Below, piece by piece: positions 8,627 through 58,631 of a stretch of DNA of 61,166 nucleotides. Numbering within the stretch: the stretch's first letter is position 1; every line of letters starts with the position of its first letter. The stretch lies in assembly GCA_027346135.1 (NCBI GenBank), contig DAIESS010000002.1, positions 1 to 61,166 of the forward strand. Direction: 5' to 3'. A program made the position numbers and the translations under genes. The notes beneath the pieces were generated by a model, which was not told where the DNA came from, searched no databases, and worked only from the letters and a program-made list of their open reading frames with translations. This DNA is from Candidatus Saccharimonadota bacterium (GTDB lineage Bacteria > Patescibacteriota > Saccharimonadia > Saccharimonadales > UBA4665).

Positions 8627-8656
8627 TTCTTGACCCCTTGCGGCAGCATAAGCGGA

Positions 8657-8692: not shown

Positions 8693-9016
8693 ATGAGTAA
8701 TCATGAACAAAACCAAAATCCAGATGAAAATGACAATCCCTATGTCGAAAATTTTTGGGAGCCGGCCGACGATCGCCAGCAATATCCGCGAACGCGTGAA
8801 GATGCCGAAATTGGCATAACCGAACAATTCAAAGATGAGCTAGCCAGCGAGCCTAACGTCGTGGGTCGTGCCCGTCATGAGCCCACATCTGATAAGCCGC
8901 TTGAGGATATAAGTGCTTTGCCCGAAATCTCCCAGGAGCCGGAGGTTACGAAGCAATCTCTGGCAGCAAAAATAGCCGGTTTGCTAGGCAAGCTTAGGCG
9001 ACACGATGGCGAATAG
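8693..9016 (+). CDS. hypothetical acidic protein (107 aa)
   Basis: ORF directly behind a consensus promoter. The composition looks disordered. Confidence 0.45.
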   Translation: MSNHEQNQNPDENDNPYVENFWEPADDRQQYPRTREDAEIGITEQFKDELASEPNVVGRARHEPTSDKPLEDISALPEISQEPEVTKQSLAAKIAGLLGKLRRHDGE

Positions 9017-9077
9017 TGCTTGCCACGGTGTCTTAGAGAAAAATTAGTCGTGTTGGCTCGATAAACAGAGCGACTAA

Positions 9078-9106
9078 TTGACAAATGATGTAATTTTTGC
9101 TATAAT
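9078..9106 (+). promoter_or_regulatory. sigma70-like promoter abutting ATG 9116
   Basis: TTGACA-17 nt-TATAAT, with 9 nt to the ATG. Confidence 0.5.
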
Positions 9107-9115
9107 ACCGTCATT

Positions 9116-9436
9116 ATGACAGAACGACCACCTGAACATCCTGACGATTTCCAAGACTACGACGATAGACGAGATCCTTGGGCAGTGAAGGATGTATTGG
9201 CGGAGATCCGAGAGGCTTTAAGCGCCAGTTGGATTGAAGAGGGCCAAGTGGCTGAAGAAGAGGCTAAGGAAAATCCTATAGCAACCGACGACCCGGAATT
9301 GGCGGCAGCCCTGCAGCGGCTAAGAGCTTTGCTCGATCCGCTGACTCGGCCTGCCAGTGTTAGCGATGAAGAACTTAAATCGGCTGAAGATGAAGTACAC
9401 CGTCTGCAGGCCAAAAACAAAGACCCGGAACAGTAG
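9116..9436 (+). CDS. hypothetical acidic protein (106 aa)
   Basis: ORF behind a consensus promoter. Confidence 0.45.
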   Translation: MTERPPEHPDDFQDYDDRRDPWAVKDVLAEIREALSASWIEEGQVAEEEAKENPIATDDPELAAALQRLRALLDPLTRPASVSDEELKSAEDEVHRLQAKNKDPEQ

Positions 9437-9474
9437 ACGCACCAAGGTTAAAAACGTATAATATAAAAACTGTT

Positions 9475-11691
9475 ATGGCAAAAAAGAAACAAACTCGAAA
9501 AAAGAAACAACCAGTCGTCGAAGACGTCGTTGAGCGGTCACCATTTTGGGGACTAGCTGGCGGCGTTTTGTTGTGCGTCGTAGCGCTATTTCTGCTGTTA
9601 GGTGGTTTTGGCACCGGTGGACCGTTGCCGGTCAATTTATTCAAAGGTGTTTACGCCGTGTTTGGCTGGGCGGCATATTTATCGCCGGTAGCCATGGCTT
9701 ACTGGGGTGTTTATAAAATCACCAGCGAGGACCGACGGGTACCGCTAAGCAAGCTGCTGGGCATGTTTAGCGTCTTATTATTTAGCGCCGGCTGGCTGCA
9801 CGTATCGTTTGCTAGCCGCAACGATGCCGGTGCCTGGGTCGGTGGCTTTGGCGGCGCAGCCGGGCGGGTGATTGGCGGCATGATTTTAAGTGCCCTCGAC
9901 AAATGGCCAGCCGGAATCTTGTTCTTTGTACTCACCATCCTGGCCGTTTTCTTCGCTTTTGCGATTTCACCGAAGGTTATTCTCGATTTCTTTGCGATGT
10001 TTAAGGCCGAGGGCACCGAGGAAGGCGCTGCAACTGATTTGGCGGCACTCAAGGCTCGCGCTGAGCATACCGGCTTTAAGATGAATGAGGGTGTGCCGGT
10101 TGAGCATCACACTGCCCGCGAGGATGCTCGCTTGAGCAGCATGAAGAATACGGCCAAGAAGCTTACGCCGGCCGAGGACCATGTGGCTTTGACTATCGCC
10201 AGCGACCCGGACTGGCAATTGCCGCCGATTACTTTGCTGAACCAAAAGCAGGACAAGGCTAACGCCGGCAATGTCGAAGGCAATGCCGACATCATTCAAG
10301 ATACATTCGCGAACTTCAATATCGACGTCGAAATGGAAGGCGCCAACATTGGTCCGCGCGTCACCCAGTTTACGCTTAAGCCGCCAACAGGGGTAAAACT
10401 GACCAAAATTACGGCACTTGAAAACAACCTCATGCTCGATTTGGGTGCTCAAAGCATTCGTATGGAAGCGCCAATCCCTGGTAAGCGAGCGGTCGGCATC
10501 GAGGTACCAAACATCACACCGGCCGTCGTGCGGGTGAGTTCGCTGTTAACGTCCGAGCCGTGGAATAAACTCAAGAGTCCGCTTGGATTCACTATTGGTA
10601 AAGACATTTCCGGCCAGCCAATTGTCGCTGATTTGGCAAAAATGCCGCACTTGCTGGTGGCTGGTCAAACTGGCTCTGGTAAATCGGTCATGATTAATAC
10701 ATTCTTGACGAGCCTGCTGTACCGTAATAGCCCAAGCGACCTTAAATTGATCTTGGTCGACCCTAAGCAGGTTGAAATGGCGCCTTACCATGATATTCCG
10801 CACTTGCTTACGCCAATCATTAACGAGCCGGAAAAGTGCATTAGCGCTCTTAAATGGGCGGTGGCTGAAATGGAGCGCCGTTTGCGCACTATGGCCGAAG
10901 TTGGCAAGCGCAACATTGGCGAATACAACGACCTTAAAAAAGAAGAAGGCATGCCGTACATCGTTATCGTCATCGATGAGTTAGCTGACCTGATGATGAT
11001 GGCGGCTCGCGATGTCGAAGCACTGATCGTACGCATTGCCCAAAAGGCTCGTGCCGCTGGTATTCACTTGGTACTGGCAACGCAGCGTCCGTCTGTCGAC
11101 GTTATCACCGGTTTAATTAAAGCTAACGTACCTGGCCGTATTGCGTTTACGACGCAGTCTCAGGTTGACAGTCGCACCATCATCGACCAAGCTGGCGCCG
11201 AAAAACTATTGGGCCGTGGTGACATGTTGCTTTTGACAAGTGAAATGCCCAAGCCGAAGCGTATCCAGGCTGCTCTTATTGAGGATGCTGAGACGGCTAA
11301 AGTTATGGATTTCTTGCGCAACCAGCGACCGCCACGCTATGACGACGAAGTGGTCAGTCAACCGGTCGTTTTGAACGGTAAGGGCGGCATAGTCGCCGAC
11401 ATGGGTGGTAACGACGCTGATGACGACATGTGGCAGGACGCCGTTCGGGTGGTAATTGAGGGTCGCAAAGCATCGACCTCACTCTTACAGCGCCGTTTAC
11501 GGATTGGTTATGGCCGAGCCGCTCGTTTGATCGAACAAATGGAAGAACAGGGTATTGTAGGTCATGCCGACGGCTCTCGACCGCGCGAAGTTTTGGTTAA
11601 CAGCCTGGATGAAGTCTTTGGTGGCAGTGAGCCGGACGGTGCTACGCACATCCCAGTTGAAGACGACAACGAAGCCTACTCGAACGCTTAA
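9475..11691 (+). CDS. ftsK: DNA translocase FtsK/SpoIIIE
   Basis: N-terminal TM helices, Walker A GQTGSGKSV, DELADLMM, and a C-terminal gamma wHTH (LLQRRLRIGYGRAARLIEQME). Confidence 0.92.
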   Translation: MAKKKQTRKKKQPVVEDVVERSPFWGLAGGVLLCVVALFLLLGGFGTGGPLPVNLFKGVYAVFGWAAYLSPVAMAYWGVYKITSEDRRVPLSKLLGMFSVLLFSAGWLHVSFASRNDAGAWVGGFGGAAGRVIGGMILSALDKWPAGILFFVLTILAVFFAFAISPKVILDFFAMFKAEGTEEGAATDLAALKARAEHTGFKMNEGVPVEHHTAREDARLSSMKNTAKKLTPAEDHVALTIASDPDWQLPPITLLNQKQDKANAGNVEGNADIIQDTFANFNIDVEMEGANIGPRVTQFTLKPPTGVKLTKITALENNLMLDLGAQSIRMEAPIPGKRAVGIEVPNITPAVVRVSSLLTSEPWNKLKSPLGFTIGKDISGQPIVADLAKMPHLLVAGQTGSGKSVMINTFLTSLLYRNSPSDLKLILVDPKQVEMAPYHDIPHLLTPIINEPEKCISALKWAVAEMERRLRTMAEVGKRNIGEYNDLKKEEGMPYIVIVIDELADLMMMAARDVEALIVRIAQKARAAGIHLVLATQRPSVDVITGLIKANVPGRIAFTTQSQVDSRTIIDQAGAEKLLGRGDMLLLTSEMPKPKRIQAALIEDAETAKVMDFLRNQRPPRYDDEVVSQPVVLNGKGGIVADMGGNDADDDMWQDAVRVVIEGRKASTSLLQRRLRIGYGRAARLIEQMEEQGIVGHADGSRPREVLVNSLDEVFGGSEPDGATHIPVEDDNEAYSNA

Positions 11692-18740: not shown

Positions 18741-19844
18741 TTATTTAGTGACGTTGAATTTGAATTCCACGACATCGTTCGGCTGCATGACGTAAGTTTT
18801 GCCTTCGGTACGGACTTTGCCGGCGGCCTTGGCGGCAGCTAGCGGCGAGCCATTGGTCTGGTCGGCGCTTAGGGAGATGAGATCGTTGTAGTCGATAATT
18901 TGAGCGGCGATGAAGCCTTTCTCGAAGTCGCCGTGAATAACGCCCGCGGCTTGCGGGGCGGTAGCGCCCTTGTGAACCGTCCAGGCCCGTACCTCTTTTT
19001 CGCCAGCGGTAAGATAACTTTGCAAGCCAAGCGTGGCATAGGCGGCATGTATAAGTTGGATTAAGCCAGATTCCTTTACGCCATAGCTTTCGAGTAGTTC
19101 AGCGGCATCGGTGGCATCTAAGCTGCGCAGCTCACTTTCCAATTTGGCACAGACAAACAGGGCGGGTGACGGCGCAACCAATTCACGTAGTTTTTGCTGG
19201 TGGGCGGTGTCGGTCAAACCGTCTTCGTCAAGATTGAATACATATATTACTGGCTTAGCGGTTAACAACTGAAGGTCGGCAATGTGCTCGCGGTCGATGT
19301 CTGGTTGACTCCAGATGGGCTGGCCGCTGTCGAGCAGAGTGCGAACTTGTAAAATCGTGTCGAGTACGGGCTTTAATTTCGGGTTAGCTCGGGCTTCTTT
19401 TTCGAATTTATTAAGTCGGTTAGTAACGGTTTGTAAGTCGGCCAGGACCAATTCGGTGTTAATGACATCGATGTCTTTAGCCGGGTCGTGTTGCTCGTCG
19501 ACATGTTGAACGTTAGGGTCGTCAAAGGCCCGTACAACCTGCACGATGGCGTTCGTACTACGGATATGGCTCAAAAATTGATTACCCAGACCTTCACCCT
19601 TACTGGCGCCGGCTACCAGTCCAGCAATATCAACAAAGCTAACCGTTGCTGGAACGATATTGTTAGTTTTGTACAAAGAGGCTAGCTTTGTCAGCCGCTC
19701 ATCCGGTACGGGTACTATGCCGGTATTTGGTTCGATAGTCGCAAACGGATAATTAGCCGCCAGAATGTTGCTGTCGGTTAGGGCATTAAACAACGTGGAT
19801 TTACCAACGTTGGGCAAGCCGACGATGCCAATGGATAAGCTCAT
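18741..19844 (-). CDS. ychF: redox-regulated ATPase YchF
   Basis: IGIVGLPNVGKSTLFNALT and a C-terminal TGS-like domain. Confidence 0.95.
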   Translation of the reverse strand: MSLSIGIVGLPNVGKSTLFNALTDSNILAANYPFATIEPNTGIVPVPDERLTKLASLYKTNNIVPATVSFVDIAGLVAGASKGEGLGNQFLSHIRSTNAIVQVVRAFDDPNVQHVDEQHDPAKDIDVINTELVLADLQTVTNRLNKFEKEARANPKLKPVLDTILQVRTLLDSGQPIWSQPDIDREHIADLQLLTAKPVIYVFNLDEDGLTDTAHQQKLRELVAPSPALFVCAKLESELRSLDATDAAELLESYGVKESGLIQLIHAAYATLGLQSYLTAGEKEVRAWTVHKGATAPQAAGVIHGDFEKGFIAAQIIDYNDLISLSADQTNGSPLAAAKAAGKVRTEGKTYVMQPNDVVEFKFNVTK

Positions 19845-19872
19845 AATTTATATTGTAACAGAGGCAAAATAG

Positions 19873-19901
19873 TTGACAAAACATAATAGTTTTGCTATTA
19901 T
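19873..19901 (+). promoter_or_regulatory. unit A promoter
   Basis: TTGACA-17 nt-TATTAT. Confidence 0.55.
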
Positions 19902-20000
19902 ACGGCCGAACTGTTGGAATAGTGGCGGCACTATTACTCTTTGGAGTTCCGTATTTTTAGTACGATGATGGTCGTGCTGCTTGCCAACGTTCGTTTATTT

Positions 20001-20015
20001 AACATGTCAGATTGT
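20001..20015. repeat. inverted repeat L1 (AACATGTCAGATTGT)
   Basis: Exact reverse complement of 20496-20510. Confidence 0.9.
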
Positions 20016-20181
20016 CCGGATATTTAGACGAGAGTTTAAGTGTCTAGTGTCACAGCAGGCGCACGACCGAGAGTCGCACACTTCCTGTGATACTAAACCC
20101 CGGTGTTTGGTTGCTCACTGATGTAAACCATGATTTTGACCCATCCCGAGTCAAACGTGGCGATTTACGAAAGGACACACC

Positions 20182-20322
20182 ATGAACACGAGCGTCAAGA
20201 ACATCGTCATGCCTGTCCGCAAGGTCGGCACGAAGGTCGGCGTCGCCGTCACGGCAGTGGTCACCGCAACTGCTGGCGTCATCGAGCTGATCCTTACTGG
20301 GGGAAACTACCCCTGGAACTGA
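20182..20322 (+). CDS. 46-aa hydrophobic peptide (MNTSVKNIVMPVRKVGTKVGVAVTAVVTATAGVIELILTGGNYPWN), payload of unit A
   Basis: The ATG sits at the same position behind the shared CGAAAGG RBS as the unit B gene. Contains one predicted TM helix. Below the ORF-track cutoff. Confidence 0.45.
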   Translation: MNTSVKNIVMPVRKVGTKVGVAVTAVVTATAGVIELILTGGNYPWN

Positions 20323-20379
20323 TCGCTCTCTACGAACGCCGTTGCTGTTGGCTGACAACATATCGGCGTTTGTGTCGTT

Positions 20380-20451
20380 GGGCTAAGAGGCGGTGGACAT
20401 TCGTCCATCCAAAAGACGCGGTTCCAAACCGTACGTCCACCCCTCTAGCCC
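20380..20451 (+). other. conserved 3' hairpin module, unit A
   Basis: GGGCTAAGAGGCGGTGGAC .. GTCCACCCCTCTAGCCC gives 17 bp with two bulges. Inner hairpins are TGGAC-attc-GTCCA and GACGCGG..CCGTACGTC. Confidence 0.6.
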
Positions 20452-20495
20452 TGACGGCCCCCTTACACCCCAACCCTCACTCTCCTCAACAATCC

Positions 20496-20510
20496 ACAAT
20501 CTGACATGTT
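20496..20510. repeat. inverted repeat R1 (ACAATCTGACATGTT)
   Basis: Reverse complement of L1. Confidence 0.9.
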
Positions 20511-20614
20511 TCTTTCCATATTTTTGAAAGTTCAGAGTTTATCTGGGTTTGAATAACATGTGGAAGCAACTTCAACCGCCGGTTCACTAGGGCCCTGTAA
20601 CAGAGGCGAGATGG

Positions 20615-20643
20615 TTGACAAAACATAAAAGTTTTAGTATGAT
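20615..20643 (+). promoter_or_regulatory. unit B promoter (lies between R1 and L2)
   Basis: TTGACA-17 nt-TATGAT. Confidence 0.55.
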
Positions 20644-20740
20644 ACAACAGCAATTTTGGAATTGTAGAGGCATTAGTATTATTTTGAGCGCCGTACGCAT
20701 GTACGATGACGCTCGTGCAGCTAACCAAAGTTCGCACATT

Positions 20741-20755
20741 AACATGTCAGATTGC
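20741..20755. repeat. inverted repeat L2 (AACATGTCAGATTGC)
   Basis: Exact reverse complement of 22672-22686. Confidence 0.9.
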
Positions 20756-20936
20756 AAAGATATATTAGCTGGATTTTTGAGTGTCTAGTATCGCAGCAGG
20801 TGCACGACAAATTATCGTTAATGGTCGCACTCTTACTGTGATACTGGACACCACATTGTGTTTGGTCAATCACGGCATGACACCATGATTTTGACTCATC
20901 CCGAGCCAAAACGTGGCTACCCGAAAGGGAACCCTC

Positions 20937-21809
20937 ATGAAGGACGGAAATCAGCTTGCCCGAAAGGCACTGGAGCTGCGCTTCAGCCTTTCCCGGGTGA
21001 TCGGTGGGCTTGTTGTGGCAATTGTCGGTTGCGTCGCCCTCGTCATGGGGACGAGCTTCACCGCCGATGCCGCCACGACCGTGACCACGGTGACCGCTTC
21101 GTACGCGGCCCCCACGGTGCAGTGCTCGCCGCTCGCGGTGGTCATCCCCAGTTCGCCTGGGTACGACTACTACATGTCGACCGGGCGCACCGGCTTCACG
21201 CTGGTGGCGGCTGGCAGCTACCCCGTGTCGACATCCGACCTCCCGGTCGGTGTATCGGTGCGACTGGCTGGTTCATCGCCCGATGGGCCCCCGCTGCAGT
21301 TCTGGGACCTGAGCGCGGACATCACGGCCTGTGGCACGACGACGTCAACAACGCCGCCGACGACCACCACGACCACTCCGCCGGTCACGACCACCACGTC
21401 GCCGCCGACGACCACCACGACCACGACAACGCCACCGACGACGACGTCAACAACGCCGCCGACGACCACCACGACCACTCCGCCGGTCACGACGACAACG
21501 ACGCACACCACGTCAACGACGCCGCCCACGGTGACTTCGACCTCTACGTCGTCTACGACTCCGGTCGTGACGAAGACGACCAAGACGTCGTCTCACGTAG
21601 TGGTCGTGGGGCACGGCAACAACCGCAACACCCCGAGTTCCACCTCGACCTCCGCCTCGCGTGCAGCGGGCGTGGGTACGGGTGGTCAGCTCGATGCAAC
21701 CAAGACCAGCAGCAGCTTCCCGCTGCTCCCGGTCGGTCTCATCGCCGCCGGCCTCCTGCTGGCAGCGACAGGCCTGAGGAAGCCCCAGCGTGTCAGGGCG
21801 ACACGCTGA
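20937..21809 (+). CDS. secreted Thr/Pro-rich surface protein with a sortase-type C-terminal anchor architecture
   Basis: Signal peptide (..VALVMGTSFTADA), TTPPTTTTT repeats, and a C-terminal hydrophobic helix plus RKPQRVRATR tail. ATG 20937 was chosen by homology with the unit A RBS/ATG. GC-rich. Confidence 0.75.
   Translation: MKDGNQLARKALELRFSLSRVIGGLVVAIVGCVALVMGTSFTADAATTVTTVTASYAAPTVQCSPLAVVIPSSPGYDYYMSTGRTGFTLVAAGSYPVSTSDLPVGVSVRLAGSSPDGPPLQFWDLSADITACGTTTSTTPPTTTTTTPPVTTTTSPPTTTTTTTTPPTTTSTTPPTTTTTTPPVTTTTTHTTSTTPPTVTSTSTSSTTPVVTKTTKTSSHVVVVGHGNNRNTPSSTSTSASRAAGVGTGGQLDATKTSSSFPLLPVGLIAAGLLLAATGLRKPQRVRATR
21339..21493 (+). repeat. tandem repeat, 53-bp perfect copies with a 102-bp period
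   Basis: ACGACGTCAACAACGCCGCCGACGACCACCACGACCACTCCGCCGGTCACGAC occurs at 21339 and 21441. Confidence 0.85.
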
Positions 21810-22569
21810 GCACAGCGGTCACCGCTGGCTCAACTGGTCGGTAGCCCTCGGAGTAACCCTGGTTATGCTGGGGATGGTCCTTTGGGCTACCGGCCAACTG
21901 GGGACAGTTGCTGGAAGTAGCGCTTCGGCTCAGCCGACGCGAACCTTGCCAGTAACACCCTCAGGTTCGGCGGTGCCGCCAACGTCGTCTTCGTCGACGA
22001 CCACTGGTGCGCCGCGACCCGCGACGACACCAACACCAACTCACAAGGCAAAATCGACGACGGCTACTCCGCCATCAGCGGTAACTTCGCACAGAATTGT
22101 CTCGGTCGAGATTCCTGCTATTGGGGTCAAGGCCAAGGCAAGCGGAGGCATCGTGCCAACGGCGTCATCGCGCTGCGAGGGTAGTGGCGTAGCTATCTGC
22201 TACGACCCACCGGTGTTAACCGAGGTGGCCTGGGGCTCGCTCTGCGCGCTACCAAGCATCCCCTCGCACGACACCGTGTGTCTGTTTGGTCACAGTAATC
22301 GCTTCTATCCGGACAGGCAGGTCTTCAACGACCTACCCAAGCTACGGACTGGCGACAAAATCATCGTGACGACAGACACGGCGGTTTTCATCTACCGGAT
22401 GGATAAAAACCCGATTTGGGTAAACTTCAACCGTGTAAGTGAGTCCGACTGGGTTTGGGCGAAAGTTCCGAACCGACTCGTTGCCATTACGTGCACGATT
22501 GGCTCCAGTAGCTATACGGGAGCAACCGTCGCGGAGGCGACAATCGTGTCGGTTCGGCCGCTGGGCTAA
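21790..22569 (+). CDS. sortase-family transpeptidase
   Basis: N-terminal TM, Pro/Thr linker, LFGHSN (His), LRTGDKIIV, and LVAITCT (Cys). Overlaps the upstream gene by 20 nt. GC-rich. Confidence 0.72.
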   Translation: MSGRHAEHSGHRWLNWSVALGVTLVMLGMVLWATGQLGTVAGSSASAQPTRTLPVTPSGSAVPPTSSSSTTTGAPRPATTPTPTHKAKSTTATPPSAVTSHRIVSVEIPAIGVKAKASGGIVPTASSRCEGSGVAICYDPPVLTEVAWGSLCALPSIPSHDTVCLFGHSNRFYPDRQVFNDLPKLRTGDKIIVTTDTAVFIYRMDKNPIWVNFNRVSESDWVWAKVPNRLVAITCTIGSSSYTGATVAEATIVSVRPLG

Positions 22570-22634
22570 GAGGCGGTGGACGTTTGTCCATTTAAAAGAC
22601 GCGGCTAACGCCGTACGTTCACCCCCTCTGGCTC
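22563..22634 (+). other. conserved 3' hairpin module, unit B
   Basis: The 5' arm is identical to unit A. The 3' arm carries three substitutions that all keep pairing as G-U wobble. Confidence 0.6.
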
Positions 22635-22671
22635 TGGTGGTATATATCACTCTTGCCTTAATCGGCAGCCC

Positions 22672-22686
22672 GCAATCTGACATGTT
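22672..22686. repeat. inverted repeat R2 (GCAATCTGACATGTT)
   Basis: Reverse complement of L2. Confidence 0.9.
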
Positions 22687-22796
22687 TTCCTCCATAATTT
22701 TGAAAGTTCAGAAGCCTTCTGGGTTTGAATAAATATATGGAAGAGGCCGAAGCATGGCCTATTCTTATTGTGCTTGTGGTTTGGTATAGTACATCT

Positions 22797-23321
22797 ATGA
22801 GTGAAATTGTGCTCGACCCAGAGACGGCCGCTAGAAATAAACATCGTCTGCACATAAACCCTCGAACGATGTTGCTGGTTTTGGCCTTGCTAGTATTAGT
22901 GGGTATTGGTTGGGGTGTGCAGTATGTGCTGTTACACCGGACTACAAAGCCTAAGAACACGGTCGCCGATACGTCGCAGAATAGTAGTTATGCCCAATCG
23001 CTCAACGACTGGCGTCAAAAGTTAGCCGCCGCTAAAACGCCGCAGGAAAAGAGCGCTGCTCACCAGGGTTTGGCCAATGTCGAAAGTGCCCAGGGTAATA
23101 ACACGGCTGCTCTAGCCGATGCCCAGGCTGCGGTCAGCAGTGACGGCACCTCTTATGCTGCCTATGCCGTTCTGGCAATGGTAAAAATGCAGGCAGGGGA
23201 CAATGCCGGAGCAATTGCAGCTTATAAAAAAGCTGCGGAACTCGCTCGTGCCACGGGCACGCCGGAAGGTATTCGTGGCGCAAGTGATTACGAAATAATG
23301 GCAGCGAGCGTGGGGCGCTAG
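22797..23321 (+). CDS. membrane-anchored TPR-like protein
   Basis: TM helix (MLLVLALLVLVGIGWG) followed by Ala-rich helical repeats. ATG 22797 lies 6 nt after TATAGT. The ORF-track TTG 22725 lies in the repeat module. Confidence 0.5.
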   Translation: MSEIVLDPETAARNKHRLHINPRTMLLVLALLVLVGIGWGVQYVLLHRTTKPKNTVADTSQNSSYAQSLNDWRQKLAAAKTPQEKSAAHQGLANVESAQGNNTAALADAQAAVSSDGTSYAAYAVLAMVKMQAGDNAGAIAAYKKAAELARATGTPEGIRGASDYEIMAASVGR

Positions 23322-36356: not shown

Positions 36357-37289
36357 TTAGTTAGCGCTCGACTCTTTATGTGTGGCGTTATGGAATTTCT
36401 CGTGTGTTGCTTTAAGATGTGGGTCGGTTACGTGGGTATATATTTGTGTTGTACTGATGTTGCTGTGGCCGAGCATGGCTTGAACGGAACGCAGATCGGC
36501 TCCATTCATGAGCAAATCGGTTGCGAAACTATGGCGCAATGTGTGTGGGCTGACGTGCTTGGTAATGCCGGCTAGCAAGGCGTAGCGAGCGACTAGCCGT
36601 TGGACACTGCGAGCTGTCAGTCGGTGGAAGTTGCCGGTCAAATCCACCTTTTTCGTACCGCTGTAGCGCACAAAAAGCGGCCGGGCAGTGTCCTTTCGTT
36701 CCTGCAAGTATTGTTCAATGCGGAGAGCGGCTTCCGGGCTGATAAAAATCGGCCGGTCTTTTTGGCCCTTACCACGTACCATAAATTCCCGCCGTTTTAG
36801 GTTTATGTGATCGCGATCGAGTCCCACTAGTTCTGACACGCGCAGCCCGCTACTGAACAGTAATTCCAGGATTGCCCGGTCTCGCTTGCCCACAAGAGTC
36901 GAGGTGTCGGGCACATCGAACATGCGCTCCAACTCTTCTTCGCTTAAAAATGTGACCTGTTTTCGGACCGTTCGAGCCAGCTCGATCTTATCGGCGGGCA
37001 GAGCAGATACATCGCGTTTGGCACAATATTTTAAGAAGCCGCGCAGGGCAATCAGGTGGTAATTTTGGGTGGTCTTTTGAAGCTCGTCAGAGGTATTGGT
37101 GCCTAGCCGGTTCAGCCATAAACGCCATTTGCGGACCAGTTCAACATCAATTTCGCTGACGTTTATGTCGCCGGCAAAATCAAGCAGGCGGGTCAAGTAA
37201 TGATCATAATTAGCAATCGTTTTTTGCGACCGGTTTTGTTCGATTTCCATATATTCCAGGAAATCGGTTTTAGCTCGCTGAAACTTCAT
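36357..37289 (-). CDS. tyrosine recombinase, XerC/XerD family
   Basis: N-terminal SAM-like domain. C-terminal HTLRHSFATDLL..LGHSNISTTQIYTHV with the catalytic Tyr. Confidence 0.88.
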   Translation of the reverse strand: MKFQRAKTDFLEYMEIEQNRSQKTIANYDHYLTRLLDFAGDINVSEIDVELVRKWRLWLNRLGTNTSDELQKTTQNYHLIALRGFLKYCAKRDVSALPADKIELARTVRKQVTFLSEEELERMFDVPDTSTLVGKRDRAILELLFSSGLRVSELVGLDRDHINLKRREFMVRGKGQKDRPIFISPEAALRIEQYLQERKDTARPLFVRYSGTKKVDLTGNFHRLTARSVQRLVARYALLAGITKHVSPHTLRHSFATDLLMNGADLRSVQAMLGHSNISTTQIYTHVTDPHLKATHEKFHNATHKESSAN

Positions 37290-50137: not shown

Positions 50138-50140
50138 ATT

Positions 50141-50216
50141 TGGTCGGGGTGACAGGACTTGAACCTGCGACCTCACGGCCCCCAGCCGTACGCGCTACCA
50201 ACTGCGCTACACCCCG
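50141..50216 (-). tRNA. tRNA-Pro (GGG), CCA encoded
   Basis: CGGGGTG/CACCCCG and anticodon loop CTGGGGG. Confidence 0.92.
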
Positions 50217-50313
50217 TTGTTGGAACCTTCGGTCTTTTGACGTTTGGACTTTGGCTGGGGGTATTATAGCATCTGTGGATAAGAGGGCGGTAGGGTGTGC
50301 GATAATAGAACTA

Positions 50314-51132
50314 ATGAAAACAATAAAACTCGACCACCAGTTAGCTGAAGATGTAAAAAACGGTAAAAAGCGCTCTACTTGGCGACTTTTCGATGATAAA
50401 GATCTGTCGGTGGACGATCGGGTGATGCTAATCGATAAAGTTAACCCGCGTGATCATGATACTTGGGTGGTATTTGGCGAAGCTGTAATTACTCGGGTTA
50501 CGGAAAAACACTTAGGTGACATTAGCAACGAGGATTATGAGGGACATGCCCAATACGATTCGCCTGATGAAATGCTACGTGCTTATCGCGGTTATTATGG
50601 CGATTCGGTCAGTTTCAAAACGCCTGTCAAAGTAATCCGGTTTGATTTCTTCCCGTATGAACATATGGCTCCAGTGGCAGGCGACTCGGTTAAGCACGAA
50701 GAGGAAAAACCAACTGAAATAAAACTGTATGCTGACGGCGGTTCGCGAGGTAATCCCGGCCCGTCGGCTAGCGGCTTTGTATTGTACGACATGCATGACA
50801 GGCCATTGGTAGATAAAGGAGTCTATCTAGGAATTACCACCAACAATCAGGCAGAATACACCGCACTAAAATTAGGCCTTGAAGAAGCGCGGCTAATGGG
50901 CGCTCGTCGTGTTCATGTTCATATGGACAGCTTGTTGGTCGTGAATCAGATGAAGGGCATATTTAAAATCAAAAACCGAGATTTATGGCCCATTCATGGT
51001 GCTATTAAAGATTTGCTATCCGGTTTTGAGCATGTTGACTTTACGCATGTTCCGCGCGAACTCAATAAGGCGGCCGATGCTGCCGTTAATCGCAGTATGG
51101 ACGAAGCGCTTAAGCATCAAAATATCGCTTAA
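50314..51132 (+). CDS. ASCH domain - RNase H fusion protein
   Basis: N-terminal ASCH-like region of about 110 aa. C-terminal RNase HI with the DEDD residues (YADGGSRGNPG, NNQAEYTAL, HMDSLL, NKAADA). The part of the ORF upstream of 50314 overlaps tRNA-Pro. Confidence 0.8.
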   Translation: MKTIKLDHQLAEDVKNGKKRSTWRLFDDKDLSVDDRVMLIDKVNPRDHDTWVVFGEAVITRVTEKHLGDISNEDYEGHAQYDSPDEMLRAYRGYYGDSVSFKTPVKVIRFDFFPYEHMAPVAGDSVKHEEEKPTEIKLYADGGSRGNPGPSASGFVLYDMHDRPLVDKGVYLGITTNNQAEYTALKLGLEEARLMGARRVHVHMDSLLVVNQMKGIFKIKNRDLWPIHGAIKDLLSGFEHVDFTHVPRELNKAADAAVNRSMDEALKHQNIA

Positions 51133-55140: not shown

Positions 55141-55560
55141 ATGGAACCGACAGGTAGTAAAGAAAATAATAATTCGAATGGCATGGCGAATGATGTGCCG
55201 GGGCAGTTTTTGGGTGCGCCGGCACAAGGCTTTGGGCAGGCTTCGGCACAGCCTGGTTCGCCGGTTAGCTCGCCCGTTCCGACTATACCGAGCCCGTCAT
55301 TTTCGCCAGCATCTAATGGTGGCAACGGCTATCCTGCGATGGCCGGGTCTACTCCAAGTGTAGATCCAAACACAACAAATATTCAGGCATCTGACGAAAG
55401 CGTAATAACAGATAAAATGTGGTCTGAAAAAGTCAAAATTGTTGTAAATGAAACAAAAGGAAACCCCTTCATTAGGAGTCAGAAAATAGCGGCTTTAAAG
55501 TCTGAATATATAACCAAAACCTATGGCAAACGACTCGGCCAAAACGAGCAAAAATCATGA
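55141..55560 (+). CDS. hypothetical Pro/Ser-rich protein (139 aa)
   Basis: Stop codon overlaps the next start (ATGA). Confidence 0.45.
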   Translation: MEPTGSKENNNSNGMANDVPGQFLGAPAQGFGQASAQPGSPVSSPVPTIPSPSFSPASNGGNGYPAMAGSTPSVDPNTTNIQASDESVITDKMWSEKVKIVVNETKGNPFIRSQKIAALKSEYITKTYGKRLGQNEQKS

Positions 55561-58500
55561 CAACGATAGTAATTATTTTGATAATTTTGGGGTTGCTTGG
55601 AGCGGCCGGTTGGGTTGCTTTTGTGTACATAGAACGAGCCCTGCGGGACCGCAAAAATTATGAGCGCGGTCTTAAAATGGTGCCGTTACTAATACACCTG
55701 CCGCCGCCTAGTGACGATATTGATGGTGGCGGACGAGATCGCCGTGACGTTGTCGATGAGCATATATCTAAGGCGCAGGTTATATACAACATTATTGCCA
55801 GCACGCTGCAGAAAGGTTTTAAGACCCGCATATATGGTCAGCGCCACTTTGCTTTCGAAATTGTTGGCCATGATGGCTTTGTTTACTTCTATGCAGCCGT
55901 ACCGGTGCCTTTGGTTGAAGTGATCAAACAGGCGGTAATTAGTGCTTATCCAACGGCTCAGCTTGAAGAAGTAAGTGAGCACAATATTTTCAACCAGATC
56001 GGTAAACTAACCGGTACGGTAGGTGGTGAAATGGTTCTAAAAGAGCAGTTCGCATACCCTATTGCCACCTATCAAGATCTAAAACGAGATACACTACAAT
56101 CACTCTTGAACGCGCTTTCTACACTCGATAAGGAAGACGGTGCGGCTATACAGTTGCTGATACGACCGGCTGATTCTAGCTGGCGTAAAACTGCATCGGC
56201 AGTAGCTAGTAGCAAGCGCAAGGGCGAAGAATCTAAAAAAGGAATGAGTGCTGTAGGCTCAATATCCAAGCAGATTTTGATGGCGCCAGTTAAGCCGCCG
56301 GAAGAAAAGAAAGCTGATGCTCCGCCTAAACCGGAGCTTTCACATATGGACCAATCCATACTTGATGCGATCGACGACAAGACGCGATATCCGGGTTATG
56401 AGGTCTTGGTTCGGGTGGTTGTATCGTCCAATATATCGCAACGGTCTCAGGCAATTCTGAGTAATATCGTAGCGACCTTTTCGTTGTTCGACGCGCCCGG
56501 GAAGAACGGCTTCAAATATATACCGGCAAAAGATGTTGACGAACTTACATCGGATTATATCCTTAGAGTATTCCCGGCCGAGAACAAAAAGACAATTCTA
56601 AACTCTATTGAATTGGCGACACTTTTCCATTTTCCGGACCAAAGCAACGTGCCAACATCGCAACTTAGACGGCAAGAATCCAAGCAAGTTGATGGGCCGC
56701 GCAATATACCAGAAAAGGGTCTACTGCTGGGCTATAACATTTTCCGTGGCGTCAAAAAACCAATTCGTCTGGACCTAGGCGACAGGCAGCGACACATGTA
56801 TGTGGTTGGTCAAACCGGTACTGGTAAGTCGACCTTTCTGGAAAACTTGGCCTTGCAAGACATGCTAAACGGCAATGGTTTTGCCTTTGTTGACCCGCAT
56901 GGTGATACGGCCGAAAAATTGTTATCCATGGTTCCTAAAGAGCGGACCGAAGACCTTATTTATTTTTCGCCAGCCGACACTGACTTCCCGATGGGGCTTA
57001 ATTTGTTCGAGTTTCATTCACCGGATCAGAAAGATTTCCTTATACAAGAGGCTCTTAACATGCTCTATAAGTTGTATGACCCTCAACACCAGGGCATTAT
57101 GGGCCCGAGGTATGAGCACCTGTTCCGTAACGCCGCTTTGACGGTCATGGCCGACCCGGCCGGTGGTACCTTCGTAGATATCCCTAAGTTATTCCGCGAT
57201 CCGAAGTTTGTGCAGCAAAAGCTACAACACGTTAAGGACCAAACGGTCATCGAATTCTGGCAGAAGGAAATGCCACAGTCGCAAAGATCGAACGAATTTG
57301 GTGAAGTTGTTAGTTGGTTTGTGAGTAAATTTGGTGCATTCGTTTCTAACGAGATGATGCGTAATATTATCGGGCAGACAAAAAGTGCGTTCGATTTGCG
57401 CGACATTATGGACAACAAAAAAATCCTGCTAGTGAACCTGAGTAAAGGGCGAACAGGCGAACTTAATAGCAAATTGCTGGGTATGATTTTCGTAATGAAA
57501 TTCCAGGCGGCCGCTATGAGTCGTGCCAACATTCCGGAGTCTGAGCGGGTCGACTTTTCGTTGTACGTGGATGAGTTTCAAAACTTCTCGACCGATTCGT
57601 TTGCGACCATCATGTCGGAAGCGCGCAAGTATCACTTGAATCTTATTGTTGCGAACCAGTTTACGACACAGCTAACGACCGAGATCCGTGACGCGGTTTT
57701 CGGTAACATGGGTACGATCGTGTCGTTTAGGGTCGGTCAAAATGATGTCGAATCACTAGTTAAGTATTTCCAGCCGATATTCGAAAGTGACGACTTATTG
57801 AGGGTACCCAACTACAACACAATCATACGTACGCTGGTTGGCGGTGTACCGACGCAGCCTTTTAGTATGGCGACGTTACCGCCATTGGGTAACCCGAATG
57901 CCAAATTGGCTGATGCTCTAAAGCAGCTTTCTGCCGCAAAGTACGGCAAGCCACGAGCAGTTGTCGAAAAGGATATATTTGCTCGTATGGCAACGCAAGA
58001 AGCGCCCAAGCCAGCCTTTGGTGCTGAATTTGGTTCAGCAGCCAACAAGTCTCCTTTTGACTCGCCAAAAGCGCCTTGGGATACTCCTGCGAGGGCAACG
58101 GCGACGCCAACTACTGGCGGATCACGGCGACCATCATCGCCAGCACCAGCATCGAGTTCATCATTCCTTGACGAGTGGCTTAATAAGCGCAAGACGGTTA
58201 CACCGCCGCGTCCAAGCAATGGCGTAGCTGCATCCGAATCTACCGAAAAGCCGGCGCCAATGGTTGCCGTGCCGCAACCCTCGGCTCAGCCCCAGACTGA
58301 AAGTAAACGTGCTGCCGACCAACATGGTGCTGAAACAAAGAATATTTCCAGTGACGAAATTGAGCAGCGTGAGGTTAATAAAATAGCCGCAGAGTTGAAA
58401 CATCAACTTGGGCCAGTCGGTACTCAGCCGAAGAACTCGCCAAAACAGCCACCTAAACCCAAAGAGGATAAGCCAAAGCCGGATGAACCAAAACCTGCCA

Positions 58501-58631
58501 AGCCAGCTTTTTCAATCAGTGATTTGCAGCCGAAAAATAGCGCAGCGTCGAACCTGCCAAAGGATGACGCAAACGATACTATATATATAGATCAAGACGG
58601 CACATTGCATATCAAGCAAGACCAGCCATAA
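55557..58631 (+). CDS. VirD4/TraD/TrwB-like P-loop ATPase (type IV secretion coupling-protein-like) with a disordered Lys/Pro-rich tail
   Basis: N-terminal TM, Walker A VGQTGTGKST followed by FVDPHGD, and Walker B YVDEFQNF. Confidence 0.55.
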   Translation: MTTIVIILIILGLLGAAGWVAFVYIERALRDRKNYERGLKMVPLLIHLPPPSDDIDGGGRDRRDVVDEHISKAQVIYNIIASTLQKGFKTRIYGQRHFAFEIVGHDGFVYFYAAVPVPLVEVIKQAVISAYPTAQLEEVSEHNIFNQIGKLTGTVGGEMVLKEQFAYPIATYQDLKRDTLQSLLNALSTLDKEDGAAIQLLIRPADSSWRKTASAVASSKRKGEESKKGMSAVGSISKQILMAPVKPPEEKKADAPPKPELSHMDQSILDAIDDKTRYPGYEVLVRVVVSSNISQRSQAILSNIVATFSLFDAPGKNGFKYIPAKDVDELTSDYILRVFPAENKKTILNSIELATLFHFPDQSNVPTSQLRRQESKQVDGPRNIPEKGLLLGYNIFRGVKKPIRLDLGDRQRHMYVVGQTGTGKSTFLENLALQDMLNGNGFAFVDPHGDTAEKLLSMVPKERTEDLIYFSPADTDFPMGLNLFEFHSPDQKDFLIQEALNMLYKLYDPQHQGIMGPRYEHLFRNAALTVMADPAGGTFVDIPKLFRDPKFVQQKLQHVKDQTVIEFWQKEMPQSQRSNEFGEVVSWFVSKFGAFVSNEMMRNIIGQTKSAFDLRDIMDNKKILLVNLSKGRTGELNSKLLGMIFVMKFQAAAMSRANIPESERVDFSLYVDEFQNFSTDSFATIMSEARKYHLNLIVANQFTTQLTTEIRDAVFGNMGTIVSFRVGQNDVESLVKYFQPIFESDDLLRVPNYNTIIRTLVGGVPTQPFSMATLPPLGNPNAKLADALKQLSAAKYGKPRAVVEKDIFARMATQEAPKPAFGAEFGSAANKSPFDSPKAPWDTPARATATPTTGGSRRPSSPAPASSSSFLDEWLNKRKTVTPPRPSNGVAASESTEKPAPMVAVPQPSAQPQTESKRAADQHGAETKNISSDEIEQREVNKIAAELKHQLGPVGTQPKNSPKQPPKPKEDKPKPDEPKPAKPAFSISDLQPKNSAASNLPKDDANDTIYIDQDGTLHIKQDQP

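Follow-up and report, generated by a model that had tools for sequence, protein, structure and literature searches.

A candidate expression frame for sortase-anchored surface proteins, present as two tandem units between ychF and the type IV pilus genes of a Saccharimonadales genome

The stretch of DNA analysed here, referred to as the window, comprises 61,166 nucleotides of contig DAIESS010000002.1 (assembly GCA_027346135.1), and its neighbour proteins and related contigs place it in a genome of the Saccharibacteria (TM7), order Saccharimonadales. Genes run in the order rpsF-ssb-rpsR, efp and crp-bPH-ychF on one side of a slot and a TPR gene, a gene for a large unknown protein and pilM/N/O/B/T/C on the other, an order that is kept in relatives. 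The slot is occupied by two tandem, colinear direct units, unit A (19854-20566) and unit B (20596-22743), with about 29 nt between the end of the first and the start of the second. In each, a 5' module and a 3' module, together called the frame, surround coding content that we call the payload. Unit B is intact, and unit A has a complete frame in which the payload is cut to a 46-codon open reading frame (ORF) and a frameshifted sortase relic that corresponds to the 3' end of the gene. Both units, with order and orientation unchanged, are also present on four more contigs of the species (>99% identical), one of which breaks off inside B, and these same-species contigs differ only in the number of Thr/Pro repeats. 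Our study interprets this arrangement, with moderate confidence, as a lineage-specific expression frame for a sortase-anchored surface-protein operon, which occupies the slot between ychF and the type IV pilus genes, was duplicated in tandem and has a payload that turns over. No description of such a ychF/pilus frame locus for surface proteins and sortases was found in the literature.

The 5' modules align over 19854-20181 (A) and 20596-20936 (B), and the 3' modules over approximately 20339-20575 (A) and 22526-22752 (B), where the shared order is a stem, a repeat arm (CAATCTGACATGTT) and then TTTTGAAAGTTCAGA..TCTGGGTTTGAATAA. Each diagnostic motif was found twice in the 61-kb window (the repeat arm four times) and only in the two units, compared to 0-0.3 occurrences expected from shuffles. 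This bears out the block-by-block similarity of promoter, 5' leader, ribosome-binding site (RBS) and 3' module that had been described in a first-pass annotation of this DNA. Careful alignment gave a module identity of 72-75% between A and B. The contigs of relatives, which carry L numbers here, were fetched via YchF and sortase homologues, and the modules of B were 71% identical to those of L010 and 66% identical to those of L045, so that the divergence between A and B is about that of orthologous modules in other species. Identical runs of at least 12 nt between A and B numbered 7, compared to 2.9 expected if differences were placed at random (p≈0.01), and the sum of squared identical-run lengths (p≈0.002) indicated that substitutions are clustered in blocks. 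The first-pass annotation had seen no ordinary gene duplication here, but the units follow each other head to tail, as in a tandem segmental duplication. As in known tandem duplications with a degenerate copy, the units are colinear and the short copy holds a relic of the parental gene; unlike in such cases, the regulatory shell of A has been fully kept and its ORF is unrelated to the start of B.

Unless stated otherwise, the features described below lie on the plus strand. Unit B encodes a surface protein of 290 aa (20937-21809), which consists of a signal or transmembrane (TM) segment, a small N-terminal domain, a Thr/Pro-rich linker, a GVGTG motif, a TM segment and a basic tail, and which is 47% identical to the surface protein of L045 over the 79-aa N-terminal domain. 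It is followed by a sortase (21790-22569; start uncertain, the public gene calls using the ATG at 21865 for a protein of 234 aa) that matched PF04203 at 36.1 bits (cut-off 26.6) and was 73% identical to its counterpart in L010, 61% to that in L004 and 43-47% to that in L045. The motifs GHSNR and (A/M)(I/M)TC, with the catalytic His and Cys, are conserved in the sortase alignment, in which no conserved catalytic Arg was identified. The best NCBIfam match was to class E, at a score far below the cut-off (25.8 versus 160). The pair resembles actinobacterial class E sortases and their LAxTG substrates in that the two genes are adjacent and the substrate combines a signal peptide, a Thr/Pro stalk, an xxxTG motif, a TM segment and a basic tail. 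It differs from them in its low class E score and in the non-canonical sorting-type motifs of the window (GVGTG), L004 (AIGTG) and L045 (SFGTG); L048 and L052 have (I/V)AAHTG, which is LAxTG-like.

The payloads are compositional outliers in the window. The earlier G+C counts of 40/60 at 21301-21360 and 21/60 at 19861-19920 were reproduced exactly on recount, and the payloads were GC-richer, as had been claimed, in a way not common to native genes. The G+C content at third codon positions (GC3) was 0.52±0.05 across 58 native ORFs, with no genuine flanking gene above 0.60, compared to 0.81 for both the surface-protein gene and the 46-codon ORF and 0.64 for the sortase gene. Within the surface-protein gene, the linker (21336-21560) is built of imperfect 9-, 18- and 102-nt repeats, and its length differs among >99% identical assemblies (L001, L002, L041-L043), with at least three variants that differ by up to approximately 100 nt. 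The public gene calls replace the surface protein (20937-21809) with a wrong-frame ORF of 328 aa (20858-21844), and the homologous GC-rich genes of L004 and L048 are likewise miscalled or missed. Because the genes are miscalled, protein-database searches miss this surface-protein family, and a query with the N-terminal domain returned no match from the protein database, itself included.

In unit A, the segment 20339-20417 aligned with 22526-22600, the 3' end of the unit B sortase gene, at 76% identity. Because this similarity starts inside the sortase coding sequence, unit A holds the relic of a sortase end. Its frame-2 translation at 20339-20386 gives the last ~15 codons and the stop of a type-1 sortase, reading ...ADNISAFVSLG* in a frame other than that of the 46-codon ORF, where unit B ends ...AEATIVSVRPLG*; the relic also resembles the 3' end of the L004 sortase gene. 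Similarity between the units therefore does not resume exactly at the stop, as had been reported, but begins about 44 nt inside the sortase coding sequence. The frameshifted relic also makes unit A an eroded sister of a B-like unit rather than an unrelated cassette. The earlier view that the two payloads are unrelated holds for the 46-codon ORF, which is without similarity to the surface protein of B, but not for the sortase, of which A keeps a piece; diverged paralogy between the payloads was accordingly found for the sortase relic only. The 46-codon ORF itself (pepA, 20182-20322; GC3 0.81) encodes an orphan peptide that looks like a signal peptide or TM segment. It is present only within the species of the window, is identical in five assemblies and, in an exhaustive search of 1.84 billion representative proteins, returned only itself and one low-complexity match. 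Judging from its GC3 and its signal-peptide-like appearance, pepA is probably the N-terminal stump of a lost surface-protein gene.

The frame was also found, as a single unit at the ychF/type IV pilus locus, in at least four other lineages (L045, L048/L049, L052 and L010), so that the modules do occur elsewhere, a point on which the first-pass annotation had made its own proposal depend. L045 shows the promoter, the first part of the leader and the left repeat arm at 66-72% identity to B, followed by a surface protein and sortase; L010 shows a sortase and then the 3' stem, right repeat arm, tail and TPR gene; L048/L049 and L052 (NCBI GCA_039921005.1) hold complete units. L048 and L052 were the closest relatives recovered (pilM 84-86%, Crp 78-79% and PRT 76-81% identical to the window), and yet BLAST detected no resemblance between their surface proteins and sortases and the ones in the window, L010, L045, L004 or L012. 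Between L048 and L052 the sortases were 62% identical and the surface proteins did not match each other. The coding content thus appears to have been replaced, or to have diverged beyond recognition, with the start and stop codons as the boundaries of change. These comparisons show a frame that is shared within a clade, plausibly by inheritance, and a payload that is hypervariable and appears to have been replaced at least once by a non-homologous pair of surface protein and sortase. The proposal of a reusable scaffold stands in so far as the same frame surrounds different payloads, both within the window and across species (those of L048 and L052 being BLAST-unrelated to the others). It does not extend to arbitrary cargo, as the payloads found are all of one functional kind, a sortase substrate and its sortase.

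The sample of the frame comprises five lineages, several of them on short contigs. Profiles of the 5' and 3' frame matched the loci of these lineages alone and gave no nhmmer match in L011, L012, L035-L040 or L046, in which the slot holds other genes or nothing; these searches covered the ychF-adjacent DNA in L035-L040 and L046 and the whole slot to the pilus cluster in L035-L037 and L012. A profile search of genome contigs with the sortase alignment returned no match, and a search with the 732-aa neighbour found two distant Saccharibacteria metagenome-assembled genomes (MAGs) only, both without the frame. One distant MAG, L012, has a GC-rich pair of surface protein and sortase at the syntenic locus. 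A metagenome scan with the 3' pattern GGTGGACN{20,40}CGTACGTNCACCCC, which proved too GC-rich, gave 22 chance matches on contigs of 59-76% GC that were unrelated to the locus. The slot between ychF and the TPR gene is variable (L035-L040, L045, L046 and L048), and its contents include a 135-aa protein with a SHOCT protein, a Fic-like protein, a 223-aa protein, HopA1, and an xre regulator with a membrane protein. The contig of L049, which comes from another sample of the L048 species, begins (position 1, equal to L048 position 7924) 15 nt upstream of the left repeat arm. This contig end is possibly an assembly branch caused by population variation that starts at the boundary between frame and payload.

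Both units begin with the upstream motif TGTAACAGAGGC. In unit A (19854-19865) it directly precedes the -35 box and shares sequence with the divergent ychF promoter, and in unit B (20596-20607) it is present as an identical copy; motifs of the type AACAG[AG]GG precede the frame promoter in L045, L048, L052 and L012. The promoters of A (TTGACA-17-TATTAT, 19873-19901) and B (TTGACA-17-TATGAT, 20615-20643) each match the consensus at 11/12 positions and are homologous among A, B, L045, L048 and L052. On the minus strand, a sequence resembling a promoter for ychF (TTGTCA-16-TACAAT, window 19844-19879) stops some 8 nt short of the ychF ATG, overlapping both the TGTAACAGAGGC copy and the -35 region of unit A. 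Because this site is so near the ychF ATG and the -35 box of A, it suggests that the ychF mRNA would be nearly leaderless and that the divergent promoters overlap. The notion that TGTAACAGAGGC in B is a mere copied piece of the ychF promoter was weakened, as related motifs persist where other genes separate the frame from ychF. The TPR gene 3' of unit B has a separate conserved promoter, with a motif (ATTGTGCTTGTGGTTT) that is kept in L010, L048 and L052. Inspection for Crp/NtcA-type operators that might serve the neighbouring Crp-family regulator gave no convincing site.

Between promoter and start codon, each unit is predicted to transcribe a long structured leader, of ~274 nt in A (19908-20181; minimum free energy -87.8 kcal/mol, z = -3.4) and ~287 nt in B (20650-20936; -94.2 kcal/mol, z = -4.5), and the leader of L048 likewise folded better than shuffles (z = -4.4). 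An alignment of five leaders was homologous from promoter to ATG, irrespective of the type of payload, and the leader of B was homologous over its full length to those of L048, L052 and L045. The context of the RBS and ATG in A is common to B, L048 and L052 (ATGs at 20182 in A and 20937 in B). A long hairpin in the leader (20045-20095 in A, 20786-20846 in B) showed covariation across four units: of its 17 pairs, 10 had compensatory double changes and 97% of cells were paired. Structure predictions from few sequences lean towards the sequences they come from; for the long hairpin, the controls were clean, as 0/500 shuffles were as good and slid partners were only 26-47% paired. A second, RBS-proximal helix (20128-20160 in A) also covaries, being CCAUGAUUUU...AAACGUGG in the window and CCUCUACUUUU...AAAGAGAGG in L048 and L052. 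The Rfam 15 covariance models gave no match at the gathering threshold, and none at E≤5 within 19800-22800. The leader is thus modelled as a new structured RNA that is supported by covariation. A conserved upstream ORF beginning MILTHPE was considered and rejected, as an indel sets the reading frames apart after 7 codons and the stretch folds into a covarying hairpin.

At the other end of the payload, a long stem with inner hairpins begins at the stop codon of the relic in A (20386-20446) and a long stem at the sortase stop codon in B (22569-22629). The consensus of A, B and L010 has 25 pairs, 3 of them compensatory, with compensatory changes in an inner hairpin, and L048 and L052 have an analogous 3' stem of different sequence, for which support is weaker. 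The unit ends in a tail, with a weak terminator-like hairpin in A (20511-20566) that is 84% identical to 22687-22743, the aligned tail with a terminator-like hairpin in B, and homologous tails follow in L010, L048 and L052.

The state of these structures in unit A bears on an alternative, in which A is a working small gene and the frame has been re-used for a 46-aa membrane or secreted peptide or for a regulatory RNA. Unit A forms 83% of the pairs of the five-sequence leader consensus, compared to 88% for B, and its frame has therefore not decayed. In addition, its promoter matches at 11/12 positions, its RBS and ATG context is shared, its repeat is perfect, its 3' stem is intact, its ORF has a GC3 of 0.81 and is identical in five assemblies of the species, and the conservation it shares with B comes in blocks, which implies that both copies are constrained. 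Set against this, the peptide is an orphan, the copies are all >99% identical and hence offer no test of selection, and the frameshifted sortase relic 17 nt downstream of the ORF points to a deletion. Furthermore, L045, L048 and L052, in which the upstream side is covered, have a single unit and no counterpart of A (the L010 contig being too short to tell). On balance we consider a working gene in A unlikely, even though the unit may still be functional, as a 46-aa peptide or as an RNA.

Two of the shared blocks listed separately in the first-pass annotation, the leader block AACATGTCAGATTG and the 3'-module block CAATCTGACATGTT, are in fact reverse complements of each other and form a 15-nt inverted repeat, with one arm in each untranslated region (UTR) and the payload between them. 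In unit A the left arm (AACATGTCAGATTGT, 20001-20015) is perfectly complementary to the right arm (ACAATCTGACATGTT, 20496-20510), and in unit B the left arm (AACATGTCAGATTGC, 20741-20755) is perfectly complementary to the right arm (GCAATCTGACATGTT, 22672-22686), with arm spacings of 480 and 1916 nt, respectively. Complementarity is 15/15 in all four complete units, with duplex energies from -20.8 (A) to -24.5 kcal/mol. At the outer end of the repeat, the window has A-T where L048 and L052 have G-C, and the left arm of L045 carries G and the right arm of L010 carries C; at the inner end, unit A alone has T-A, in place of the C-G of the others. Within a surrounding frame that is 65-75% identical, none of the 10 arms seen across five lineages departs from the 13-nt core. 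Both arms lie at positions predicted to be transcribed, the left about +95 from the predicted transcription start site and the right upstream of the terminator-like hairpin. The arms probably pair in the transcript, forming a panhandle with a modelled energy of about -21 to -24.5 kcal/mol, and we favour a role in which such a panhandle would affect processing, stability or translation. In L012, a different 15-nt inverted repeat (8627-8641 and 9401-9415; 14/15 complementary) flanks the sortase gene and a hairpin with 40-nt arms precedes the RBS of the surface-protein gene, which could represent an analogous architecture or chance.

Inverted repeats that flank a coding region, with the promoter outside, would also suit sites of DNA recombination that turn the coding segment round against a promoter that stays in place, so that the surface protein would be phase-variable. 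The 258-bp segment from the right arm of A to the left arm of B, which includes promoter B, could then invert too. Surface antigens are typical targets of such switches, the invariance of the 13-nt core would be expected of a recognition site, and the end of the L049 contig falls 15 nt before the left arm. However, the repeat-bounded segment had one orientation in all seven independent assemblies (five of the window species, L048 and L052), and no invertase lies nearby. The only recombinase in the 61 kb, according to Pfam annotation of nearly all window ORFs of at least 100 aa, is encoded 14 kb away on the minus strand (36357-37289), at the end of the type IV pilus cluster. It is of the Xer type (XerC/XerD 251/247 bits, below the equivalog cut-offs; integron integrase 136 versus a cut-off of 265). 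The arms moreover lie in predicted transcribed UTRs beside covarying RNA structures, and the end pairs of the repeat covary in the manner of an RNA helix. Inversion at these repeats is improbable in our assessment.

The conserved frame with non-homologous payloads between lineages, the aberrant composition of the payloads with their actinobacterial link, and the patchy distribution of the frame among Saccharimonadales of ~80% YchF identity might instead suggest a dedicated capture system or mobile cassette that plugs into a conserved socket, either integron-like or a transposon or miniature inverted-repeat transposable element with cargo. The locus does share with integron cassettes a repeated tandem architecture around different ORFs and imperfectly palindromic elements. 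It differs from them in having no intI, attI or compact attC, in its own strong promoter and long leader, and in consisting of two units with one type of payload. The likeness to integron cassettes drawn in the first-pass annotation could not be sustained, as each unit has its own promoter, no attC-type site was present and no integrase or transposase lies within ±10 kb, where the genes are housekeeping or type IV pilus genes and an invertase is likewise lacking. No direct repeats that would mark a target-site duplication were visible at the flanks of the arms. The modules were found nowhere else in the window and, apart from one chance 17-mer, not in viral contigs, plasmids or phages. Homology spans ~150 nt outside the repeats and carries on inside them, through both leader helices (the long and the RBS-proximal one), the RBS and the architecture of the 3' stem, up to boundaries at the start and stop codons. 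Because it continues inside the repeats across payload types, the repeats are not the boundary of exchanged DNA. With a payload that is always one functional pair, a dedicated capture element is very improbable, and the frame is a recombinase-free 'socket', not an integron-like system.

A closer parallel is offered by surface-antigen or capsule loci of the type of the pneumococcal cps locus, which lies between dexB and aliA, is hypervariable between conserved flanks and is switched by homologous recombination. The locus described here likewise has a fixed position, conserved flanks and non-homologous, compositionally atypical coding content between related lineages, and DNA that is taken up could plausibly be exchanged here too, by recombination in the flanks. 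It departs from such loci in that the flanks are the operon's own promoter, its leader up to the ATG and its 3' UTR from the stop, in that two tandem frames stand in one genome, and in the 15-bp inverted repeat that links 5' and 3' ends around the payload.

The nearest sortase outside the Saccharibacteria was that of L004, which was 61-65% identical and hence closer than that of L045 (43%). It lies on an actinobacterial, Intrasporangium-like contig of 70% GC beside a similarly built substrate with an AIGTG motif, and a neighbouring gene clusters at ≥90% identity with a protein of Intrasporangium sp. The L004 pair has a GC3 of 0.71-0.76, compared to 0.94-0.96 in its neighbours, and is therefore compositionally foreign there too. 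The frame was not found around the L004 operon. Saccharibacteria are known to live as epibionts on Actinobacteria, and their part in horizontal transfer has been discussed (for example in PMC10031880 and PMC8764695). Comparison of the sequences points clearly to transfer between epibiont and actinobacterial lineages, in either direction. On the L004 contig, the substrate and sortase pair (8972-10498) adjoins a PIN toxin module. The possibility that the region before the ATG was itself imported from a high-GC donor, which a shared CATCCCGA had raised, found no support in a shuffle-controlled alignment (z≤1.4).

Under the interpretation favoured here, the frame would consist of the AACAGRGG motif, a near-consensus sigma-70-type promoter, a leader of ~280 nt, the 3' stem, the 15-bp repeat and the terminator-like hairpin, and would act at the RNA level, through leader folding, mRNA stability or control of translation. 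Known stabilising or fold-back RNAs include the S-layer slpA leader, the ompA 5' stem-loops, the 3' retroregulator of B. thuringiensis cry, the hok fold-back and rRNA processing stalks. The frame is like mRNA-stabilising UTRs in its strong promoter, long folded leader, stable 3' stem after the stop and complementary 5' and 3' segments; it is unlike them in having no sequence or Rfam relation and in its invariant 13-nt core, the likeness being one of structure and covariation. Unit A would go back to an old duplication in tandem, or else to a diverged allele that integrated in tandem via frame homology, with an internal deletion in copy A afterwards. Payload turnover would follow the uptake of DNA, through homologous recombination in the flanking genes and the conserved frame, and Actinobacteria, the known hosts of these epibionts, would be the exchange partners.

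Several observations weigh against parts of this interpretation. No similarity of the 46-codon ORF to the N-terminus of the B surface protein, or to any other protein, could be detected, and the argument for pepA as a stump therefore comes down to its signal-peptide-like appearance and its GC3. A frame that is fully intact in unit A at ~27% divergence fits a functional unit better than a pseudogene. The invariance of the 13-nt repeat core, where other helices covary freely, hints at sequence-specific recognition by a protein or recombinase rather than at RNA pairing alone. Finally, vertical inheritance of the frame is plausible and no stronger than that, because the frame is represented by five lineages and YchF identities, star-like at ~80%, are a poor guide to relatedness and to the species tree.

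A more far-reaching version, in which a clade of episymbiotic Saccharibacteria possesses a conserved RNA-level socket as a standing platform for expression, operons exchanged with actinobacterial hosts are repeatedly swapped into this socket, the invariant bracket formed by the repeat is mechanistically involved and the tandem pair is an intermediate of such a swap, is possible but in our view doubtful. If it were true, the role of the bracket would be in RNA circularisation or processing, or as a site of recombination or recognition.

Elsewhere in the window, an ORF at 50140-51132 carries ASCH and RNase H/RVT_3-like domains. Its true start is probably further downstream, because its predicted 5' end overlaps a minus-strand tRNA (50144-50216). 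A protein of 1024 aa (55557-58631) has weak HerA/DUF87 and AAA_22 matches, and two small ORFs without a family lie upstream of it.

In summary, the region between ychF and the type IV pilus genes belongs with the hypervariable surface-antigen loci, among which its new leader RNA and the unusual bracket between its 5' and 3' ends set it apart. For Saccharibacteria, whose way of life is to attach to Actinobacteria, surface proteins are foremost candidates for a part in recognising the host, and those described here are encoded beside type IV pilus genes. A fixed regulatory shell in which the anchored protein and its sortase are replaced would offer a testable route to rapid change of the host-facing surface in a reduced genome. 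The leader RNA and the bracket between the 5' and 3' UTRs are open to study in the genetic systems that now exist for Saccharibacteria.

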